A DNA stretch of 64,000 bases from Escherichia coli (GTDB lineage Bacteria; Pseudomonadota; Gammaproteobacteria; Enterobacterales; Enterobacteriaceae), in NCBI RefSeq assembly GCF_044324785.1, contig NZ_CP172127.1, one strand, 5' to 3'. Below are positions 885 through 13,719 of this stretch, one piece after another. The notes under the pieces are model-generated. The model was given only the letters and a program-made list of their open reading frames with translations. It had not been told where the DNA came from and made no database searches. Position numbers and translations under genes: made by a program. Position 1 is the first letter of the stretch. The number at the start of each line of letters is the position of its first letter.

Positions 885-1298
885 CTATTTTGTCTGGTTT
901 TTGGCTTCAAGTAGTTCTTTTAGCAGTAGATCGAAGTGCTCTCTTTTTTCTTTTAGCTCATTGATTAGTTTATTTTTTTCGCTCTCAGGCAGTCCTCTGA
1001 ATAGTTGCAGTAGAGCCTGTTCTTGTGGGGTTAGTTCTTGATTGTAATTACCGGGGTGTAGCGTGGATTCATCCAAATATTCTCCTTCATTCATGAAGAA
1101 AAAATGAACAGGGTATCCGGTCACTTTTGCTAGCTTGTCTAATTTATCTTTTCTTGGCGTTACCCCATTACACCATGCCTGAACTGATTGAGCTGTAACC
1201 CCAATATGGCGAGCTAACTCAGATTGAGACCAGCCTAAGTCTTTTAGAATCCGTTGTAGTCGGCTAGCAAAAGCCATGTTTTTCGTTTTTGTGTTCAT
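885..1298 (-). CDS. Prophage repressor, XRE/HTH_3 family (CI-like), no S24 autopeptidase domain
   Basis: HTH segment WSQSELARHIGVTAQSVQAWCNG. Divergent from a cro-like gene across operator repeats. C-terminal heptad-like tail. The ORF opens at a TTG (1313); ATG 1298 (MNTKTKN) or 1277 (MAFAS) are more likely starts. Confidence 0.8.
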   Translation of the reverse strand: MNTKTKNMAFASRLQRILKDLGWSQSELARHIGVTAQSVQAWCNGVTPRKDKLDKLAKVTGYPVHFFFMNEGEYLDESTLHPGNYNQELTPQEQALLQLFRGLPESEKNKLINELKEKREHFDLLLKELLEAKNQTK

Positions 1299-1332
1299 AC
1301 CGTAAGGATACAAGGTTTAATTGTAGGGAGCA

Positions 1333-1370
1333 TTGCAAATATAATTTGTAATTACAGTTATGATTTGTAA
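1333..1370. promoter_or_regulatory. OR-like operator pair (two abutting TTRCAR-N7-TTGTAA sites) within the divergent repressor/cro promoter region
   Basis: 1333-1351 is ttgcaa atataat ttgtaa. 1352-1370 is ttacag ttatgat ttgtaa. Both lie in the 83-bp gap between the divergent HTH genes. Confidence 0.6.
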
Positions 1371-1396
1371 TGATGGCGCGGACACAAGGAGTCCAT

Positions 1397-1627
1397 ATGG
1401 ATAAACAACTGCAAGACAAAATTCTTTCCGTAATGAGTCAATCAGAGTTAGGTCGGCGATTAGGGAAAAAACCACAAACTGTGAGCCTCTGGTTCAAAGG
1501 ACGGGTTCCCGGTGAAGAGGTTTTGCGCACATCTGAAGCTCTTGAATGGCGCGTGACCCCTCATGATCTTAGACCGGATCTTTACCCAAACCCAGATGAC
1601 AGCTTGCCTAAAACGGAAGCAGCTTAA
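1397..1627 (+). CDS. Cro-like / YdaS-family HTH protein
   Basis: AAGGAG 7 nt upstream of ATG 1397. Motif SQSELGRRLGKKPQTVSLWFKGRVP resembles Rac YdaS/Cro-type proteins. Position is divergent from the repressor. Confidence 0.75.
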   Translation: MDKQLQDKILSVMSQSELGRRLGKKPQTVSLWFKGRVPGEEVLRTSEALEWRVTPHDLRPDLYPNPDDSLPKTEAA

Positions 1628-1685
1628 CTGTTGGTGAGCCCCAAATCTGATTAAGCGTAATCAATTTTTAGCGACAGGAGACGCT

Positions 1686-2162
1686 ATGGAAAACCCAGAG
1701 GAATTACAAAAAGAGATTTTGACCTGGGCGGCAAGGGCAGGGCAGGAACTCGTCACGATTGAAATCTGCCGGGCCTGGTTCAGTCAGGGACGCAATGATG
1801 AGTTGAGACTACATGAATTTGAGGACGCGGACGGCAACGTGGACTGGAGAGCCATCAACAACAATCGGCAGAAAATCTTTCGCTGGTTACGTGGCGAGAC
1901 AACGGCGGCGCGCCGAAAAACTCAGGTGCTGGCCAGTGTGATGAAAGCCGTGCTACCCGCAGAACGGCGTGCGCGTCTGGAGTCGCCGGGCGATCCTGTT
2001 TTGCTGGCAACGCTGGCGGCAAAAGAAGGGGTGGAAGCGATTAACGCTGTACATCTCCACTTCGCGCCAGAGATAACTATTCAGGAAATTGACGAAGCAA
2101 TAGCGGCGCTGGTAGCGACGCGAGGGGCAGTGATAAGCACTGCGCAAGGCCATCATGCATGA
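1686..2162 (+). CDS. YdaT-like protein (CII-position regulator)
   Basis: Segment NRQKIFRWLRGETTAARRKTQVLASVMKAVLPAERRARL parallels Rac YdaT (NIYHRWLKGETKTQREKIQKLIPAILAILPRELRHRL). Immediately follows the cro/ydaS-like gene. Confidence 0.7.
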   Translation: MENPEELQKEILTWAARAGQELVTIEICRAWFSQGRNDELRLHEFEDADGNVDWRAINNNRQKIFRWLRGETTAARRKTQVLASVMKAVLPAERRARLESPGDPVLLATLAAKEGVEAINAVHLHFAPEITIQEIDEAIAALVATRGAVISTAQGHHA

Positions 2163-6430: not shown

Positions 6431-6463
6431 TCACCACCAGATGATTGGCGTCGCTGGTGGTGA
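6431..6463 (+). promoter_or_regulatory. 10-bp perfect stem-loop abutting the start codon of the Ant-like gene
   Basis: tcaccaccag (6431-6440) pairs with ctggtggtga (6454-6463), with a 13-nt loop. The right arm carries the only SD-like GGTGG and ends at ATG 6463. Confidence 0.5.
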
Positions 6464-7137
6464 TGAAAAAAACACTAAGTGAGGCCACTGCGATGACAAT
6501 CCAAATATCTGCGGAATCCCTTTCTCCGCTACATCATAACCAACTTCCCGTCATCACTACTGAATTGCTTGCCAGTTTGTATGGCACGGAAGTAAATGGT
6601 ATCCAGCAAAACTTCAAGCGCAACATCGCCAGATTTGTCGTAGGAAAGCATTTTTTTAAGCTGGAAGGTAATGAATTACGCGACTTCAAAAACAGACTGA
6701 CAGATAGTCAGTCAGTTGCTAAACATACCCGATCCCTCATTCTCTGGACAGAACGCGGCGCAGCTCGCCATGCCAAAATGCTGGAAACAGAACAGGCCTG
6801 GGAAGTTTTCGAAAAGCTGGAAGATTGTTATTTTAGCCAGCGTCCAGAGAGGCGGAGTACAACTACCGATGACCGTACTCCCTTACGTGATGCCGTTAAT
6901 ATGCTGGTCGGTAAGAAAGGCATGATGTATCCCGATGCCTACACCATGATTCATCAACGCTTCGCCGTCTCTCACATAGAACAACTGTCACAGACGCAAA
7001 TGTTAGAGGCGATTGAATACATCCACTGCCTGCTACTCGATGAAAATCAACCAACCATTCCAGATCACCACTATCAAAAATGGAAAAGTGACCAGAATGC
7101 GCCATGTTGCCAAAGGCGAACATCTGATGACCTTTGA
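6463..7137 (+). CDS. Antirepressor-like protein with N-terminal ORF6N domain
   Basis: LPVITTELLASLYGTEVNGIQQNFKRNIARFVVGKHFFKLEGNELRDFKN matches the ORF6N pattern. Start is uncertain (6445 TTG, 6463 or 6493 ATG). The last ~30 codons overlap another frame. Confidence 0.7.
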   Translation: MKKTLSEATAMTIQISAESLSPLHHNQLPVITTELLASLYGTEVNGIQQNFKRNIARFVVGKHFFKLEGNELRDFKNRLTDSQSVAKHTRSLILWTERGAARHAKMLETEQAWEVFEKLEDCYFSQRPERRSTTTDDRTPLRDAVNMLVGKKGMMYPDAYTMIHQRFAVSHIEQLSQTQMLEAIEYIHCLLLDENQPTIPDHHYQKWKSDQNAPCCQRRTSDDL

Positions 7138-7270
7138 CGCTTTCAAAGAGATCGCTGAGCGGGCAGGGTATCTGGTGATCCACAGCGACAATCTGCGAAG
7201 TATGACACTGGATAAATTGATGGTAATGGGGAAAAAGTCTGCTGTATCCGTTGCTGATTCAGCATTTTGA
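7040..7270 (+). CDS. 76-aa ORF overlapping the Ant-like gene by 98 nt in another frame (separate gene or frameshifted C-terminus)
   Basis: MKINQPFQITTIKNGKVTRMRHVAKGEHLMTFDAFKEIAERAGYLVIHSDNL... looks protein-like. The overlapped tail of 6463-7137 (QKWKSDQNAPCCQRRTSDDL) looks like out-of-frame read-through. Confidence 0.4.
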   Translation: MKINQPFQITTIKNGKVTRMRHVAKGEHLMTFDAFKEIAERAGYLVIHSDNLRSMTLDKLMVMGKKSAVSVADSAF

Positions 7271-7298
7271 CAGGTTGAATGTTTGGCGCGGTTATACT

Positions 7299-7385
7299 CT
7301 ATTTGCGCTTAAAAAGGTATTTAGTCACAACCAGCACGAGGCCGAATACTCTGTCAAAGTACCGCCCATGTAAAACTGTAACGTA
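7299..7385 (-). pseudogene. Decayed 3-prime remnant (~28 codons) of a second copy of the two-TM gene found at 10899-11504
   Basis: ~90% identical to 10899-10986 (same orientation, offset ~3600 bp). It has a 1-nt deletion that breaks the frame. Similarity stops at 7385. Confidence 0.75.
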
Positions 7386-7447
7386 TGTACTTGATGACTA
7401 AGCTGGCACCAGGTTAACACCAGGCGCCAGCTTGAAGGAAACTTCAG

Positions 7448-8371
7448 TTATTGGTTTCTGAGGAAAGCGATTCTTGAAAGGGTCATTTGCGTCTGGCAGT
7501 CGACCATTTTCTTGACTTCAGCATCTGTTCCCTGCATTGAAACTTTACCGCACATAGCATCCTTAGTTTTGATCCACTGACGCTGAGAAGGCAGCAAATC
7601 TTTTTTCTTCGCCGGGGTTAACTTGCTCCAGACGGTACTCAAATCAGAGTCGGCATTCGCAAATGCCATTCGGGACTGATCAAGGCTGTCAGCTTTTTGT
7701 GGCTGAAGTTGTGCCTGTCTCTCTATTTGCTTCTCCGCCTCATACTTAGCCTGTTCCTGCGCCCTGAGTTGCACCTGTTGTTCCGCTTCAATTTGGCTCT
7801 GTTGGGCATCCTTAGCCTGCTGGATTTTCTGCTGCTCAACGATCGGGTTGATAATAGAAAGTGATGTCAGTAAAGCGGCGCCCACTGATATCGGATTATC
7901 AGAAGAGGTTTTTACAAAAACGTTTTTCTGATCGTCGGTCGCCTGCACGGTGTAGGTGATACGTTTGGAAAAGGCGTTTGCGTTGTTCTCCAAAAACAGG
8001 CTTTCCATTTGCTTGTCGAGATTACGATTAAAATTCTTTCTGTAATCATCAGAAAGCTGGACGTATTCGTTCGCAGGTAGAGTCATCGTCACGGTCCCTT
8101 CACAAGTTTTCATTGTGCTGCCCGTGTCACTTGATGTTGTGGAGATTTCAGAGATGGCTAGTTTGATCTTGTCCAATGTGCTTCGTTTGGTCTGATTAGT
8201 GACATCAGGGTATTTATCGACCTGTTCAGAGAGTCCTTCATAAGCAGATTTTTTTAATAAATCCATAAGCGCTGACTGGGTTATTTCCGAAGAACAACCG
8301 ATCACATCTTTTTTGTTATCACAGCCTGTAAGGGCAATGGCGAGTAAGAGTACTGAGTATTTTAATCTCAT
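7448..8371 (-). CDS. Lipoprotein with Q-rich coiled-coil and C-terminal DUF1311/LprI-like domain
   Basis: Signal peptide plus lipobox LLLAIALTGC. Central EQQKIQQAKDAQQSQIEAEQQVQLRAQEQAKYEAEKQIERQAQ. C-terminal QRQWIKTKDAMCG...VDCQTQMTLSRIAFL resembles DUF1311. Opposite strand to the phage early genes. Confidence 0.75.
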   Translation of the reverse strand: MRLKYSVLLLAIALTGCDNKKDVIGCSSEITQSALMDLLKKSAYEGLSEQVDKYPDVTNQTKRSTLDKIKLAISEISTTSSDTGSTMKTCEGTVTMTLPANEYVQLSDDYRKNFNRNLDKQMESLFLENNANAFSKRITYTVQATDDQKNVFVKTSSDNPISVGAALLTSLSIINPIVEQQKIQQAKDAQQSQIEAEQQVQLRAQEQAKYEAEKQIERQAQLQPQKADSLDQSRMAFANADSDLSTVWSKLTPAKKKDLLPSQRQWIKTKDAMCGKVSMQGTDAEVKKMVDCQTQMTLSRIAFLRNQ

Positions 8372-8996
8372 GAATTCCCTTTAGAGTAAGGATTGGTTTT
8401 TAAGACGCGGTCTGTAATCAGTTCCGAGAGCTACAGTAAACAACGCTGAGCACTGAACGCATCACAGGCAAGGTAAAGGCGATATCGGCAAAGGCTGTGA
8501 AACCTTTAATTCAACAGATGGAAACGGTATGCGCAGGATCCTGTAACGACGCTCCCAAAACCGGAAACCTGTAAGGCATGTTTTCGCTGCTGAACTTAAT
8601 ATACGAACCTGCACTATCATGAACATATTTTATATCGTTATACCCCGAGTGATTGTGCCCGGCAATGGATAGTGTCCTGGAGGAACTATTTCTACTGTAA
8701 AAGGTAGACATTTAATTTCAGTGTGGAATTATTCCCTGCTGTTAATAACCATGGCTCTATATGGCACCGAGCGGACTAGTTAACTTGCCTGAAAGCCGCT
8801 ATGAGTGAGGAGCGAATATTGGCACGAGAGGATACCTGAACCATTTTTTGGACATGCGCTAAAAGCGAATGATTAGTTTTATCGGAATATTTACAGTATA
8901 CTTACAAGGCAAGCTTGGCGTGCCGTCTTGGGCGAGATTGCTTAAATTATTTTGTGGATATATCATTCAAACAAAAGATAATAAAATGAGGTTGTT

Positions 8997-9194
8997 ATGT
9001 CATATATTCGCGTAGAGAAAGATGGCCTTCAGTATGAAGCAGAATACTTCCGTAAAGAGGATATGGTCACAGTCTTTGGGGTTAGAGGAGGGCATTCCAG
9101 CGTGGTTCTAAATGGAATGACAGAAGTCGCGGCTGCTCGTACTGCGTTACGAAATCTTATTAGAGAAAATCAGGTTGATCCTCTAACTGATTAA
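8997..9194 (+). CDS. Hypothetical small protein (65 aa)
   Basis: ORF in AT-rich DNA with GAGG 7 nt upstream of the ATG. Confidence 0.45.
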   Translation: MSYIRVEKDGLQYEAEYFRKEDMVTVFGVRGGHSSVVLNGMTEVAAARTALRNLIRENQVDPLTD

Positions 9195-9398
9195 AAATAA
9201 GCCATCTTAACTGAGAGCATATTTTGATATAATTTAGATTAAATCTATTTTGAAGGTTAGTTTGGGATGAGAAGATTACATCAAAACCGTTATTACTAGC
9301 AATAAGTTGTGTAAATCAAATAATACATAATCATGTGGTAACATATACTAAGCGTAGTAAAGTTTTTATATATTCCTGTAACTTTGTGAGAAACTTCC

Positions 9399-10064
9399 AT
9401 GAAAGCCGACAACTTAAGAATTATAGAGAATGGCAAATATGTTTTCGATATGTTCTTGGATACTGGTGAATTTTACTATACAAGTCATGCCTTTGACACG
9501 AGAGAAGATGCAAAAAGCTGGATGGAAGAATGGCAGATTTGGGCAAATAATGTATCGAGTGGGAAAGTAAGTAGTATTTATTATATTTTACAAGTGCCTG
9601 ATACTTGGGCCGGTTCTTCAGATAAAAATAACCCTTACTCGGGACTTTATGTGAAAATAGGGCGTTCCAATAATGTGCTAAAAAGGTTGTCTAACCTGCA
9701 GACAGGTGCATTTGGTCAATTAATATTACACGCTTTGGAACCTGGTGGTTCAGAAAAAGAAAACTATCTTCATGAAAAATTTAGCAACGAAAGACGTCAA
9801 GGTGAATGGTTTGTTTGTACTAAGGAACTTACCAAGCATATATTTACAACATGGTTTAAAAACAAAATGCTCCCACCAGAACATCAAATAAAAATAATGC
9901 AGCTCGCAGAAAGAATAGGTATTTATTCGCATGTTCATACACTAATGGGGGGGAAGCCAGACTTAGTAAACCCATCTATTAGTGAACCTTGGGAATGCGA
10001 AAAATATGTTTTGGTTGATATGATTTATAGCTCTTTAGCAAAGCAAGTTAATCATAAAAAATAA
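9399..10064 (+). CDS. T5orf172 (GIY-YIG-superfamily) domain protein with YegP/DUF1508-like N-terminus
   Basis: Core YVKIGRSNNVLKRLSNLQTGAFGQLILHALEP...ENYLHEKFSNERRQGEWF fits the T5orf172 pattern (KIG.S.N...RL..LQTG...E..LH..F...R..GEWF). The N-terminal YVFDMFLDTGEFYYTSHAFDTREDAKSWMEEW resembles YegP repeats. Confidence 0.75.
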   Translation: MKADNLRIIENGKYVFDMFLDTGEFYYTSHAFDTREDAKSWMEEWQIWANNVSSGKVSSIYYILQVPDTWAGSSDKNNPYSGLYVKIGRSNNVLKRLSNLQTGAFGQLILHALEPGGSEKENYLHEKFSNERRQGEWFVCTKELTKHIFTTWFKNKMLPPEHQIKIMQLAERIGIYSHVHTLMGGKPDLVNPSISEPWECEKYVLVDMIYSSLAKQVNHKK

Positions 10065-10384
10065 AGTGTTACATTTTAACCATACAATTATTGATTCACT
10101 AATGAAGAGGTGATTTAAACGTATGAAGTTTTAATAAGCTCCAAGAATATTTTGTCATACATGGGTTAAAGAGTTATATAATAATATCTGCTTCTGGAAT
10201 ACAGCAGACAAGCACCTGCAGATAAAGGTCTGCTGAGAGCGAGAAGCGGATCATACGTTGGAAGTTGTTTAGGCAAATACGTTATAAACGTATTTGATTA
10301 AATTTACTTGGATCATAGTCTTCAATAACGCTTTATTATATTGTTTTTCATGCAGCAAACAGGTTTACAGGTAGGTAATAAGCT

Positions 10385-10789
10385 ATGAGTGGATGGAAAG
10401 AGTCTTTTACATTAGCAGAACAGATACAATTAGCATTAAATTTAGGTTATGAGGCTGTACCAGATGAAGAGGCATATACTGGGGCATACTTCATTAAAGG
10501 TGGTAAGAAGTGGATCTTTAACATCATCGGTCTCAAAAAGACATTGAATATATCTTCAGATGATGAACTAAGAGGGCAGGATTATGATGTTGATATGTAT
10601 TTCGAAATTCGCCAAAATTGGGCACAATACCAAGATATGATCTTTGGAAGCGAAGATATCACTCCTTCACCTAAAAATGAACTTACTTCAATTTACCATG
10701 ACCTGCAGGTAACGGATGAACCCAGGGAAATGGTGTATCTTTCTGATGGGATGTGGCTGGATCCCAACGGACGAATTGTACAACGATAG
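10385..10789 (+). CDS. Hypothetical acidic protein (134 aa)
   Basis: ORF with AGGTAGG upstream. D/E-rich. No recognisable motif. Confidence 0.5.
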   Translation: MSGWKESFTLAEQIQLALNLGYEAVPDEEAYTGAYFIKGGKKWIFNIIGLKKTLNISSDDELRGQDYDVDMYFEIRQNWAQYQDMIFGSEDITPSPKNELTSIYHDLQVTDEPREMVYLSDGMWLDPNGRIVQR

Positions 10790-10898
10790 CACTCGAACAC
10801 ACTCAGTAATCGTCTATAAGGCCAGCACTTGTTACTTGGTCATTTGGGGTTGCTGGTCTTCTCCATTAAATCGACTAAAGTCTGTTCCATAGAGAGAG

Positions 10899-11504
10899 TT
10901 ACTTGCGTTTAAAAAGGTATTTTGTCACGACCAGCACGAGGCCGAATACCTCTGTCAAAGTACCGCCCATGTACAACTGGAGCGTTAAGTCTTTAAATAC
11001 AAGCCATTCAGCACCAGTGGCAAAAAATACACCATTCATTATCAAAAGCTGGCAAGCAAGGATAATAAGGAACCATTTGCCATAGCGTTTTTTTAGATCG
11101 ATTTCAGCTTCAAAATCTTTGTTGTTGAGTTGTTTGCGCTCATGCTCAGTATCAAGTGAATTCACCTGTTTCACAGATGTGAACTCGGTCAAGATTTTAC
11201 TCTCAGTACGGGTGACTTGTTGAGAGGGGGTAGGAATTGGAATTCTTTTGATTGACGCAGCTACAGCCATTTTGCGAGCTTCGGCAGCTCTTTTTCTGGC
11301 TATTCCGTGAATACGGGCAGACGGTTTTTTTGGAGCATGCGAAACCTTTGTCTGAGGTGAAGTTTCGTCAGGAGACTGAACCGGAGTTTCATCCTCCTCC
11401 GGCTCAACCTCTTCTGCTAACTGACGGTGTAGGTTGAGGGAATCCTTCAGTCGGCGTGCAACTTCCTGTTTGAAACGGCTGTTAAAATCGTCATCCGATG
11501 GCAT
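10899..11504 (-). CDS. Orphan membrane protein: ~140-aa charged/Pro-rich N-terminal region plus two C-terminal TM helices
   Basis: Start is 9 nt after the ImmA-like stop. Hydrophobic segments WFLIILACQLLIMNGVFFATGA and LTEVFGLVLVVTKYLF. The N-terminal part is low-complexity with a K/R patch (KKPSARIHGIARKRAAEARK). Confidence 0.7.
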   Translation of the reverse strand: MPSDDDFNSRFKQEVARRLKDSLNLHRQLAEEVEPEEDETPVQSPDETSPQTKVSHAPKKPSARIHGIARKRAAEARKMAVAASIKRIPIPTPSQQVTRTESKILTEFTSVKQVNSLDTEHERKQLNNKDFEAEIDLKKRYGKWFLIILACQLLIMNGVFFATGAEWLVFKDLTLQLYMGGTLTEVFGLVLVVTKYLFKRK

Positions 11505-11513
11505 TCTAAAGCG

Positions 11514-12002
11514 TTACCCCAACCTCAAGTTCTTTAAACGATAAGTCATCGCATCGTCAGATACGCCAAAATGATGCGCCATTATATAACTTGGTTGGCC
11601 GTCAGCGTGCAGTTTTCTGACCTCATCTACCGGCATCAGAAGTTCTGCTGCGAACTTGTTCGCAAAAATTTCATCAGGATGCGTTCCGGCGCTTGCGGTT
11701 TCGCCACGTAAATCAACGTACTCATATTCATCGCTATGCGATGCTTGCCGGGCGATGTAATGCCCCAACTCATGCCCACATGAAAAACGTTGACGAACTT
11801 TGTTGTCATCACTGTTTAGAAAGATCGCTGGATCTTGATCTTTTTGTTTAATCAGTGCGCCAGAAACTTTCCCAGGAAGATCGGTAATAAAAACATCTAA
11901 TCCCATGTCGTGAGCAATTTTCGCTGGATCAACAGGGAAACCACGCCCGCACCAGAACGTGTCCAGCACTCGCCGGGCGTGCTCTCTTGGGTTGGTAGCC
12001 AT
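11514..12002 (-). CDS. ImmA/IrrE-family (M78, DUF955) zinc metallopeptidase
   Basis: HEXXH as SCGHELGHYI, plus the downstream family motif DEIFANKFAAELLMP. GGAGG 7 nt upstream of the ATG. Confidence 0.85.
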   Translation of the reverse strand: MATNPREHARRVLDTFWCGRGFPVDPAKIAHDMGLDVFITDLPGKVSGALIKQKDQDPAIFLNSDDNKVRQRFSCGHELGHYIARQASHSDEYEYVDLRGETASAGTHPDEIFANKFAAELLMPVDEVRKLHADGQPSYIMAHHFGVSDDAMTYRLKNLRLG

Positions 12003-12074
12003 AGCTCCTCCAGTTACTGCATTACGATTATTGGTCGAAATATAGACAACATGTTCCGTACCACATTCCTGTAA

Positions 12075-12093
12075 AAGTGCAAATTCTGCACTT
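12075..12093. promoter_or_regulatory. Perfect inverted repeat AAGTGCA-aattc-TGCACTT upstream of the ImmA-like operon
   Basis: 7-bp arms with a 5-bp spacer, ~75 bp upstream of the ImmA-like start. A related site lies at 12929-12947. Confidence 0.45.
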
Positions 12094-12435
12094 CTGGTAC
12101 GATATTAACTGTTAGTAGTAAAGTCTTCCAGATAAATCACTTTAAAATCGTGTGAATTGCTTGCTTTTTACGCTGCATTGTGGATGGCTCAATGTTTCCA
12201 GTAAAAACATACATGATAATCATGACATTAGTGGTTTTTTAGGCGTCCATCTGTTTCTTAAAAAAATGGATGCCACAAGCGCCCGGATGAGAACAGGAAG
12301 GGAAGGCTATTACATGTGTGATTTATTACATCTGTAAAAAAATACAGATCTAACCTGATCTTTTCATTGAAGTTTTTCTTGGTCCTGGATAGGATCTGGA
12401 GGTTGCGAAGATTTTAGAGTCGCATCAAAGGGAAA

Positions 12436-12461
12436 GCCCTGACAGCGCCAACTGTCAGGGC
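12436..12461 (-). terminator. 10-bp GC-rich hairpin, terminator-like on the minus strand
   Basis: gccctgacag-cgccaa-ctgtcagggc. On the minus strand it is followed by tttcccttt. Confidence 0.4.
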
Positions 12462-12537
12462 CATACAAAAACATCGGTTAATGCTTTCGTTGAGATCTCG
12501 GTTTGGGAGATTACCTCAACCGGGATCCCGTGTAAAG

Positions 12538-12572
12538 CATTCATTGCCGAAAATGATATAGGTCAATGAATG
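12538..12572 (+). promoter_or_regulatory. 9-bp inverted repeat whose right arm contains the start codon of the 92-aa gene
   Basis: cattcattg (12538-12546) and caatgaatg (12564-12572) with a 17-nt spacer. The ATG is at 12570. Confidence 0.4.
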
Positions 12573-12848
12573 AAACACATCTGTAAAAAGTCACATCGTC
12601 ACGACAGTATGTTTGATGTTCTTTCCGCAAATCAGGGGAACGTTGGGCGGCACAAATGTTGTGGATGTGCCTATGATAAAGGTATGTGGCACGCATTAAT
12701 TGGCGTTCCACGTGCGGTTGATGACTCTGTTTTAGGTGATTTGCCCGAAAGCCAGGCCGGGCATGTACGTCATAAAGATGCTTTTGAAGCATATAACATG
12801 GGATATGACCATGGGATGCATAAAAAAGCCTACGGCATGGCCTCATAA
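12570..12848 (+). CDS. Cys/His-rich small protein (92 aa), putative metal-binding
   Basis: ORF followed by a strong intrinsic terminator. Sequence contains GRHKCCGCAYDKG and many His. No family recognised. Confidence 0.6.
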   Translation: MKHICKKSHRHDSMFDVLSANQGNVGRHKCCGCAYDKGMWHALIGVPRAVDDSVLGDLPESQAGHVRHKDAFEAYNMGYDHGMHKKAYGMAS

Positions 12849-12868
12849 CCAGGTGTAACTTATTAACT

Positions 12869-12896
12869 AACCCGCTTCGGCGGGTTTTCTTTTTTA
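12869..12896 (+). terminator. Intrinsic terminator
   Basis: aacccgc-ttcg-gcgggtt followed by ttctttttt. Confidence 0.8.
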
Positions 12897-12928
12897 TAGA
12901 ACCCTGCGATGTGAAAACGAATAATAAA

Positions 12929-12947
12929 TTGTGCAAATAGTGCAGTT
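12929..12947. promoter_or_regulatory. Imperfect inverted repeat TTGTGCA-aatag-TGCAGTT, related to the 12075-12093 site
   Basis: Shares GTGCAAAT..TGCA.TT with site 12075-12093 (15 of 19 positions). ~20 bp upstream of ATG 12967. Confidence 0.4.
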
Positions 12948-12966
12948 TTTATTATTCGAGGTAATT

Positions 12967-13608
12967 ATGAAAACCTTCTATGAGGGCTGGCCTGAAACTT
13001 TCGTTAGCCGGTTAGATATGTTACGGGCGTTGGATGATCGCGGTTCGACCCGGAGGCTCTATCTTGAGCGGACCGGAGCAATATTTGGCGCTCTGGCAGA
13101 AGAGATACGTACAGCCGTTGCCGGGCATCCTGAAACTGACGCGAGTGAACTTGATATCGGGCCGCTATATCGCTATTACAAACGTGGAGAAAAGGGGGAT
13201 CCGCTGGCTGACTTACTTATTAAATTGGCTCCACCAACCTGTGAACGGGTTCGTATATCTCCTGAAGTGTACACAATCCCGTATCTGTTTTTTGCACTGT
13301 TGATAGCGCAAGGCGCTGACAACGATGCCCGAGATTTTTTCAATATGATGATGCGACCGTTGATCATCGCCTACCGCTTCAAACAACTGGCGCGCTACCT
13401 TGGCACGAAGGGCGGAGGACGACCACAGCACAGATTAAAAAGTGAAGCCATTGAACTGGCTGATCGTTTTTTTACTGAAAACCCGACTGCGCCATTATCG
13501 CGTGGTGTGCAATACATATCCGGTATTTTTGTGGCGAAATACTCCGATCCACCTGCAGCCTCGACGATTAGAAAATGGTTAATTTCAATTTACAGGAGTG
13601 ATAAATAA
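12967..13608 (+). CDS. Hypothetical protein (213 aa)
   Basis: ORF with GAGG upstream of ATG 12967 (the track ORF opens at GTG 12931). No recognisable motif. Confidence 0.55.
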   Translation: MKTFYEGWPETFVSRLDMLRALDDRGSTRRLYLERTGAIFGALAEEIRTAVAGHPETDASELDIGPLYRYYKRGEKGDPLADLLIKLAPPTCERVRISPEVYTIPYLFFALLIAQGADNDARDFFNMMMRPLIIAYRFKQLARYLGTKGGGRPQHRLKSEAIELADRFFTENPTAPLSRGVQYISGIFVAKYSDPPAASTIRKWLISIYRSDK

Positions 13609-13719
13609 TGACCATAAACGGTTTAATCCCCTATAAAACCGTTTAATAAAATTCACGACGTGAATATAATTGTTCATTATTCCCTCATTGTATCTGGCGT
13701 TATGACAAATGCCATAAAA

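Follow-up and report, generated by a model that had tools for sequence, protein, structure and literature searches.

Results

Organization of the locus

The 64 000-nucleotide (nt) stretch of Escherichia coli contig NZ_CP172127.1 analysed here (the window) is a lambdoid prophage; its match to a contig of Escherichia whittamii is 100% and that to E. coli prophages ∼ 98%. Our subject is a cassette of two minus-strand open reading frames (ORFs) within it, which encode an M78 (ImmA/IrrE-type) peptidase of 162 amino acids (aa) and a 201-aa protein with two predicted transmembrane (TM) helices (Table 1). As an earlier note on the sequence had stated, the ATG of the second ORF follows the TAA of the first after 9 nt. 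Coupled translation of the two genes is plausible; their relatives elsewhere lie 1–11 nt apart or overlap by 4 nt (ATGA), the latter as in the pair of Gordonia phage Kita described below.

Table 1. Features of the cassette and its surroundings in the window (pLDDT, predicted local distance difference test).
Feature	Position	Strand	Basis
M78 (ImmA/IrrE-type) peptidase gene, stand-alone, 162 aa; RmrA(D25)-like antitoxin candidate	11514..12002	-	PF06114, PADLOC, homology to Kita gp32
Spacer of 9 nt, peptidase stop to start of candidate toxin gene	11505..11513	-	window sequence; weak, distant Shine-Dalgarno only
RmrT(D5)-like membrane toxin candidate gene, 201 aa, phrog_5346	10899..11504	-	phrog_5346, E = 6e-129; hhalign with Kita gp33
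Candidate toxin codons 4–32, N-terminal helix (V/L..LK.TLNQHRQLAEE)	11409..11495	-	alignment A1; AlphaFold2 block-mean pLDDT 62–78
Candidate toxin codons 33–118, disordered linker, acidic then K/R/P-rich	11151..11408	-	composition, alignment A1, AlphaFold2
Candidate toxin codons 119–199, conserved core: juxtamembrane helix, TM1, loop, TM2	10908..11150	-	invariant columns of A1, hydropathy, AlphaFold2
Upstream non-coding region, 40% G+C, holding a 7+5+7 inverted repeat (12075–12093)	12003..12434	-	window sequence
Terminator-like hairpin, 12-bp stem, upstream of and on the same strand as the cassette	12435..12462	-	consensus match only
Decayed 3' remnant of the candidate toxin gene, codons ∼ 174–201, frame broken by a 1-nt deletion	7300..7384	-	sequence comparison

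The peptidase is a stand-alone M78 enzyme

The 162-aa protein matches the Pfam M78 profile PF06114 with 64 bits against a cut-off of 22 (E = 1.4e-17) over profile positions 3–123 of 123, which bears out the family assignment made in the earlier note. Both the HExxH motif and the downstream Glu ligand, the latter within an E..AN.FA..LLMP motif, are present. The zinc site (HELGH...DEIFANKFAAELLMP) is intact, and H77, E78, H81 and E111 are invariant in 25 homologues in an alignment that reaches down to 44% identity. Cys75 (codon at 11778–11780), two residues before HExxH (FSCGHELGH), is also invariant in 25 of the 25 aligned homologues.

Among the PADLOC profiles the best match is capP (1.6e-25, covering positions 3–151 of 242). 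The best RmrA model (E = 3e-12) matches the M78 core only (∼ 166–266 of 363 profile positions), and NF052239 scores 26 bits, its cut-off being 335. Among solved structures the nearest is CapP (7t5t), and an HTH (helix–turn–helix)-M78 protein (9vzy) and IrrE are also close; these solved relatives are 291–393 aa long. A Pfam scan found no HTH domain in the 162-aa peptidase, and profile and structure comparison found neither a sensor domain nor a C-terminal regulatory domain such as the GAF-like domain of IrrE and CapP.

The 201-aa protein has a conserved membrane core and a variable N-terminal part

No Pfam, NCBIfam or PADLOC family matched the 201-aa protein, which is a full-length member of phrog_5346 (function unknown, E = 6e-129). 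The architecture described in the earlier note is recovered: the first ∼ 140 residues are acidic and then K/R/P-rich, and two C-terminal hydrophobic helices appear as Kyte–Doolittle peaks (19-residue window) near residue 154 (2.17) and residue 184 (1.56). An AlphaFold2 model of the monomer has a pLDDT of 58 (low confidence) and served for secondary structure only; it places helices at residues 4–32, 119–167 (juxtamembrane segment plus TM1) and 173–199 (TM2), with disorder at residues 33–118, over most of which pLDDT is < 50. Both membrane helices have flanking basic residues at the same side, as would an N-in/C-in hairpin, and we infer that the long N-terminal part is cytoplasmic and accessible to the peptidase.

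A profile search of 1.84 billion representatives returned 757 members of the family at E ≤ 1e-3 (counted as cluster representatives at 50% identity), typically 100–170 aa long. What they share is the last ∼ 85 residues, with a juxtamembrane D..E..LKK.Y motif, QL..MN..F in TM1, a short variable loop and GTL.EVFG.V.V.TKYLF in TM2. The core motif is retained in Gamma-, Beta- and Deltaproteobacteria and Actinobacteria. Residues N157 and E185 are polar and lie within the membrane helices, and polar Asn and Glu residues within these helices are conserved across phyla. A TM core conserved in this way would fit an oligomerizing or conducting unit, hence an effector, better than a passive anchor; the latter reading was rejected because the membrane core is conserved far beyond an anchor's needs. 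The N-terminal part of the family is charged and disordered, with a linker of ∼ 10–110 residues in relatives, and is nearly absent in many members of 100–120 aa. Helix 4–32 is conserved within Enterobacterales only and is lost in distant members.

Both proteins are homologous to a validated toxin–antitoxin pair

A tblastn search of the INPHARED phages with the 201-aa protein gave no matches. The same search with an actinobacterial member of the family (L011) led to Gordonia phage Kita, through its gene 33, and to 16 related phage records. Kita gene 33 (119 aa, YP_009301394.1) is overlapped by gene 32, which encodes a metallo-protease of 178 aa (YP_009301393.1). A full-length alignment of the window peptidase with Kita gp32 shows 43% identity (E = 7e-41), and gp32 scores 160 bits against the family hidden Markov model (HMM). 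The 201-aa protein aligns pairwise with gp33 across both TM helices (E = 1e-7), and gp33 scores 38 bits against its family HMM. In hhalign, the family against gp33 gives 95.7% and the enterobacterial alignment against the Gordonia group 97.0%, the latter value not being fully independent since the Gordonia group includes L011.

The Kita proteins are listed in the supplementary information of PMC10440598 as Peptidase_M78 RmrA(D25) (YP_009301393.1) and ‘Transmembrane’ RmrT(D5) (YP_009301394.1), the antitoxin and toxin of a RosmerTA system. Produced alone, the Kita toxin stops growth, abolishes macromolecular synthesis, and depolarizes and permeabilizes E. coli membranes (Ernits et al., 2023; PMC10440598). 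The protease neutralizes it incompletely, E. coli carrying the pair is protected from phages Bas54 and Bas59, and AlphaFold predicts no complex between the two proteins (pDockQ, a docking-quality score, 0.05; PMC10440598). The earlier note knew of no described system with the architecture of the window pair; Kita gp32/gp33 has the same architecture, both proteins are homologous, and the pair is characterized as RosmerTA (PMC10440598).

The cassette has the two-gene RosmerTA layout, an M78 antitoxin gene with a toxin gene on the same strand 9 nt away, and through Kita gp32/gp33 both of its proteins are homologous to a validated pair. The XRE HTH that is typical, although not universal, in RosmerTA antitoxins is absent here and is absent as well from the 178-aa Kita RmrA. 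The PADLOC RmrT models do not match the 201-aa protein, and the Kita pair gives the same pattern (capP and RmrA for the protease, nothing for the toxin); since a validated pair scores alike, the current PADLOC models miss the D25/D5 subtype. We consider it probable, at roughly two chances in three and by homology with Kita, that the pair works as a toxin–antitoxin (TA) or abortive-infection cassette of RosmerTA type, subtype RmrA(D25)/RmrT(D5), and is accessory cargo of the lambdoid prophage.

The Kita results also bear on the order of events. The earlier note had proposed that the protease cleaves the membrane protein to unleash a membrane-disrupting or signalling fragment, in a logic of abortive infection or exclusion. 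A membrane-disrupting effector under abortive-infection or TA logic is most likely, but the direction did not hold: the protease would restrain the effector, because the Kita toxin depolarizes membranes without the protease and co-expressed protease partly neutralizes it. It is distinctly unlikely that the 201-aa protein is inert until a phage-triggered M78 cut in its N-terminal region frees the hairpin to form a pore, in the manner of gasdermins. The strictly conserved catalytic residues and the substrate-like disordered cytoplasmic tail next to the conserved juxtamembrane segment would suit such a scheme, as would the precedent that the nearest characterized M78 enzymes (CapP, IrrE, ImmA) are signal-activated, site-specific proteases (PMC10440598). 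However, the Kita toxin is toxic and depolarizing on its own and its protease lowers the toxicity; the N-terminal region does not resemble a conserved inhibitory domain, ranges over ∼ 10–110 residues and is nearly missing from many members; and the 162-aa protease has no sensor domain.

The two genes travel as a unit

The earlier note had made synteny a condition of its proposal, and the pair is indeed syntenic: of 47 informative loci, drawn from Gamma-, Beta- and Deltaproteobacteria and one actinobacterial metagenome-assembled genome (MAG), 45 have the peptidase gene beside that of the membrane protein. This recurrence goes far beyond chance. In a search of 185 579 species genomes the peptidase lies directly upstream on the same strand in 10 of 10 related loci, from taxa that include Buttiauxella, Leclercia, Thalassotalea, Microbulbifer, Gallibacterium, Desulfuromonas and a Rhodococcus MAG. 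It is upstream in all 13 full-length IMG/VR loci and in a distant low-G+C locus, L073 (14/14 viral), and in 21 of 23 metagenomic loci with sufficient upstream sequence. Look-ups of E. coli, Klebsiella and Serratia homologues gave the same pairing, and look-ups that began with the peptidase found a family member downstream in three of three cases. Because alignment A4 proved too diverse for locus scanning, sub-alignments were used instead.

The peptidase clade has 392 matching stretches in IMG/VR. Fifty of its 79 informative IMG/VR loci encode the membrane-protein family; 24 (within L074–L153) encode different small proteins, which begin with an acidic stretch and contain hydrophobic segments, mostly two or three. 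The family HMM misses these 24 proteins, which are alternative membrane toxins if they are not highly divergent members of the family. Of 5426 complete E. coli genomes, 430 (∼ 8%) carry the 201-aa allele as a unit with the peptidase, and six carry a 155-aa allele.

The cassette is found in the nin-like region (the window), at a prophage end by the integrase, after Q, in AlpA/primase islands, in chromosomal islets by sucD or TA genes and in tRNA-linked islets, and in Microbulbifer next to an uncharacterized 1165-aa ORF. Apart from the ribosome-binding site, the DNA upstream is not conserved between these contexts, and the cassette is therefore limited to the two ORFs. An HTH/XRE partner flanks the pair neither in the window, nor in a RefSeq-annotated locus of 98% identity, nor in any related locus, in keeping with the earlier note's remark that no such partner exists. 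The pair is an autonomous two-gene unit, and in prophages it sits at accessory-gene positions.

Two family members have a different upstream gene. On metagenome contig Ga0209345_10082811 (L062:691–1748) the gene in front of the two-TM member, overlapping it by 4 nt, encodes a dCTP-deaminase-like protein (PF22769, E = 9e-25) and not an M78 peptidase; in L070 the upstream partner is an unknown protein of 102 aa, beside a protein with helicase-associated domains. Such partner swapping hints that the membrane protein may be a general effector module.

Shiga-toxin genes of Shiga-toxin (Stx) phages are located directly after Q. In Serratia marcescens (L016:3264–5444) the cassette likewise stands directly after a Q-type antiterminator gene, on the late-gene strand, and since it shares this position it may also be expressed on induction in that phage.

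We regard as unlikely a non-abortive form of exclusion, in which the membrane protein is never itself toxic and localizes or regulates, at the inner membrane, a protease that destroys an incoming phage protein, such as an injected or early one. Prophage accessory positions are typical of superinfection-exclusion genes, and the occasional pairing of the family with a dCTP-deaminase-like protein fits a general adaptor or sensor. Against this, the Kita homologue is directly toxic, with pore-like permeabilization, and the invariant polar residues in the TM helices suggest a conducting or oligomerizing unit.

Setting and expression in the prophage

The prophage runs from a DicA-like repressor, Cro and YdaT (885–2162) through replication genes, an accessory block and DUF1367, DUF1364 and Q to the lysis and head genes. 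The accessory block (∼ 7000–13700, 42% G+C) contains the cassette, which opposes the phage early/late direction, as the earlier note had observed: the replication genes on one side of it and DUF1367/DUF1364/Q on the other are plus-strand genes, the cassette a minus-strand one. It may be expressed in the lysogen, as the note had supposed from this orientation and the upstream region. The non-coding region upstream of the peptidase gene must be the site of its local promoter; a consensus scan found no sigma-70-like promoter there, and the window has no same-strand gene upstream of the cassette. The terminator-like hairpin would insulate the cassette from read-through. What had been described as a perfect palindrome at 12075–12093 is in fact two perfect 7-nt arms (AAGTGCA/TGCACTT) around a 5-nt spacer, and it does not qualify as a conserved operator, because the DNA in front of the cassette elsewhere does not preserve it and has only the ribosome-binding site in common.

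The holin and endolysin genes of the prophage lie downstream of Q on the opposite strand to the cassette. A reading of the 201-aa protein as a holin was rejected: it is not in the position of a lysis cassette, and the gene pair is found outside prophages too.

ImmA-type proteases classically cleave XRE repressors. The immunity region of the window (885–2162) begins with a DicA-like repressor gene (NF007257, E = 3e-20) whose product has no self-cleavage domain, followed by Cro-like and YdaT-like genes, and an ORF6N-domain (ORF6N/KilA-type) antirepressor candidate lies at 6445–7137. The earlier note had proposed as a second model that the protease acts in trans on this repressor, whose gene lies at 885–1313. 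This found no support, since some copies of the cassette lie outside prophages or have unrelated regulators as neighbours, and since the Kita pair works from a plasmid without a phage repressor. A prophage-induction switch of this kind, with the membrane protein as sensor or anchor, is highly improbable. Its attractions are that XRE repressors are the classic substrates of such enzymes and that the DicA-like repressor, having no S24 domain, needs an external inducer. However, cassette and repressor are ∼ 10 kb apart; elsewhere the neighbours are unrelated regulatory modules or do not belong to prophages at all (sucD, tRNA-linked islets, AlpA/primase islands, the Microbulbifer 1165-aa ORF); the Kita pair, when plasmid-borne, is functional in E. 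coli; conservation of the membrane core goes far beyond what an anchor would need; and an antirepressor candidate is present.

In the otherwise collinear prophage of E. coli Z0117EC0036 (L001:13077–13774) an IS1A element lies between a GIY-YIG nuclease gene and a gene convergent with that of the membrane protein. This insertion is absent from the window.

Remnant, recombination and selection

The decayed second copy reported in the earlier note was confirmed. The remnant (∼ 85–86 nt) is 92% identical to 10900–10985, with one 1-nt indel, and sits just downstream of a lipoprotein LprI-family gene (7448–8371, minus strand), which appears to have displaced an earlier copy of the cassette and left the last ∼ 28 codons of the membrane-protein gene. 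Many prophages have inherited this remnant–LprI junction, which is present in IMG/VR loci L040–L046; L038/L039 show a different junction.

Compared with the common E. coli sister allele (L026, L027, L030), the synonymous divergence (dS) is 0.02–0.03 in the peptidase gene, 0.08–0.12 in codons 1–118 of the membrane-protein gene and 0.39 in codons 119–201. This steep gradient across the operon indicates a recombination breakpoint within the membrane-protein gene. With at least two truncation junctions and a break inside the gene, the recurrent exchange suggested in the earlier note is supported, and the 3' end of the gene seems to be a recurrent recombination joint between prophage accessory modules. 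The ratio of non-synonymous to synonymous divergence (dN/dS) to the sister allele is 0.09–0.55 throughout, with 0.36–0.55 in the linker (codons 33–118); both genes are under purifying selection (dN/dS 0.09–0.25).

These patterns, together with the contexts listed above, bear on whether the cassette is purely an addiction module, devoid of anti-phage function, whose post-segregational killing stabilizes the prophage or island that carries it. We find this very unlikely. The TA architecture, the presence of other TA genes among the neighbours in chromosomal islets and the narrowness of the Kita defence (two BASEL phages) are in its favour, whereas the recurrent placement at prophage defence or accessory hot spots, the exchange of alleles by recombination and the repeated scoring of Rosmer systems as defence systems are not.

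Discussion

A model for the cassette

If the pair is a RosmerTA system, the following sequence of events can be proposed. The 201-aa protein would insert into the inner membrane as an N-in/C-in helical hairpin and, left unrestrained, would oligomerize through its conserved, polar-studded helices, with the result that the membrane is depolarized or permeabilized. The co-translated 162-aa M78 protease would act as the antitoxin that keeps it harmless. Since neither an HTH nor a conserved operator was found, neutralization must be post-translational. Most likely the protease would bind and/or cut the cytoplasmic part of the toxin, either the disordered tail or the juxtamembrane helix; the strict conservation of the catalytic site suggests proteolysis, and binding alone is also possible. 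Particular phage infections, or loss of the cassette, may then shift the balance to intact toxin, and the cell would be arrested before the phage cycle is completed. This allele would in such a scheme behave like the Kita pair.

Several observations weigh against the RosmerTA assignment. The homology between the 201-aa protein and gp33 is distant, 32% identity over 57 residues, and is confined to the membrane core; the N-terminal region of the enterobacterial protein is much longer than Kita's and has no assigned role. In the Kita system itself neutralization is partial and no complex is predicted (pDockQ 0.05), and direct contact between protease and toxin is accordingly unproven. The PADLOC RmrT models are blind to the 201-aa protein and the RmrA models match the M78 core only, and the XRE HTH domain of canonical RmrA is missing from the 162-aa protein. 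The two family members with other upstream partners (a dCTP-deaminase-like protein and a 102-aa unknown) indicate that the membrane protein need not always be the client of a protease. Finally, toxicity, neutralization and phage defence are established for the Kita homologue only.

We tentatively raise the possibility, which we think rather doubtful, that in this HTH-less subtype the protease is no passive antitoxin but a catalytic, phage-sensing gate on the pore protein: it would either keep clipping the toxin, at its juxtamembrane helix or its disordered tail in the cytoplasm, until a phage factor blocks it, and so be an enzymatic antitoxin, or, as the earlier note had proposed, cut the toxin upon infection and so open the pore. 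If true, this would provide the first defined substrate and mechanism for a Rosmer-family protease, and an M78 enzyme that acts on a membrane protein instead of a repressor.

The cassette is common, in ∼ 8% of complete E. coli genomes, yet the 201-aa protein is annotated as ‘hypothetical’. Accessible portions of the papers of Vassallo (2022), Rousset (2021) and DefensePredictor describe no system of an M78 protein with a membrane protein, and the E. coli accessions WP_021560854/5 are not listed in the corresponding portions of the NetFlax supplements. Through the link to Kita the pair acquires a function that can be tested in E. coli and its lambdoid prophages, a tractable host. How Rosmer M78 antitoxins neutralize their toxins was still an open question in December 2025 (PMC12795458), and the HTH-less subtype offers a clean system in which to address it. 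The remaining interest of the cassette lies in this neutralization mechanism and in its high prevalence in E. coli prophages.

Comparison with known systems

Bacterial gasdermins resemble the cassette in that a protease gene adjoins the gene of a pore-forming effector. There, however, the effector has a gasdermin fold and its pore becomes active once the protease has removed an inhibitory peptide, whereas the window effector is predicted to be a simple helical hairpin and its Kita homologue is active without the protease. A gasdermin-like reading was rejected, for the reasons set out in the Results.

Panacea systems with PanT(D11) toxins (Kurata et al., 2022; Ernits et al., 2023) have small, membrane-depolarizing toxins with an unstructured N-terminus and a pre-TM helix, and a hub antitoxin domain that neutralizes the toxin while partners swap. 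Their antitoxin is DUF4065 and not M78, and the likeness drawn here is one of description.

ImmA/ImmR, IrrE/DdrO and CapP/CapH share the M78 catalytic fold and motif. The window has neither the adjacent HTH substrate gene nor the GAF-like domain of these systems; the partner is a membrane protein.

Canonical RosmerTA systems reportedly appear in the work of Millman and colleagues from 2022. Like the cassette, canonical RosmerTA or Xre-COG2856 systems, exemplified by pneumococcal RipAB (spr1630/spr1629; PMC12795458), combine an M78-domain antitoxin with a toxin that varies; cells that contain the toxin cannot do without the antitoxin, and a role in defence or stress is ascribed to them. Canonical RmrA and RipB are ∼ 360–400 aa long and have an N-terminal XRE HTH and extra C-terminal sequence, whereas the window protein is the M78 core only. 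The canonical toxins are unrelated to the 201-aa protein; RipA, for example, targets DnaN. RipAB also requires ClpX, which may present the toxin to the protease (PMC12795458); for Rosmer systems other than the Kita type, dependence on clpX/clpP is reported. In Pectobacteriaceae the rmrA genes are essential, and in other Rosmer systems the M78 antitoxin is essential only with the toxin present.

The closest likeness is to the Kita RosmerTA pair. In both, an M78 protease of ∼ 160–180 aa is encoded first and a tightly spaced or overlapping gene for a small membrane protein second, the toxin (candidate toxin in the window) has an acidic N-terminus and a C-terminal two-helix membrane region, and the pair is phage-borne. 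The window protein differs in its length (201 versus 119 aa), its long hypervariable linker and its Enterobacterales-specific N-terminal helix, and the cassette resides in an Enterobacterales lambdoid prophage, in contrast to the actinophage host clade of Kita, and at a different genomic position. The window cassette is of an already known kind, RosmerTA; what is new is the member itself, an enterobacterial pair so far left unannotated.

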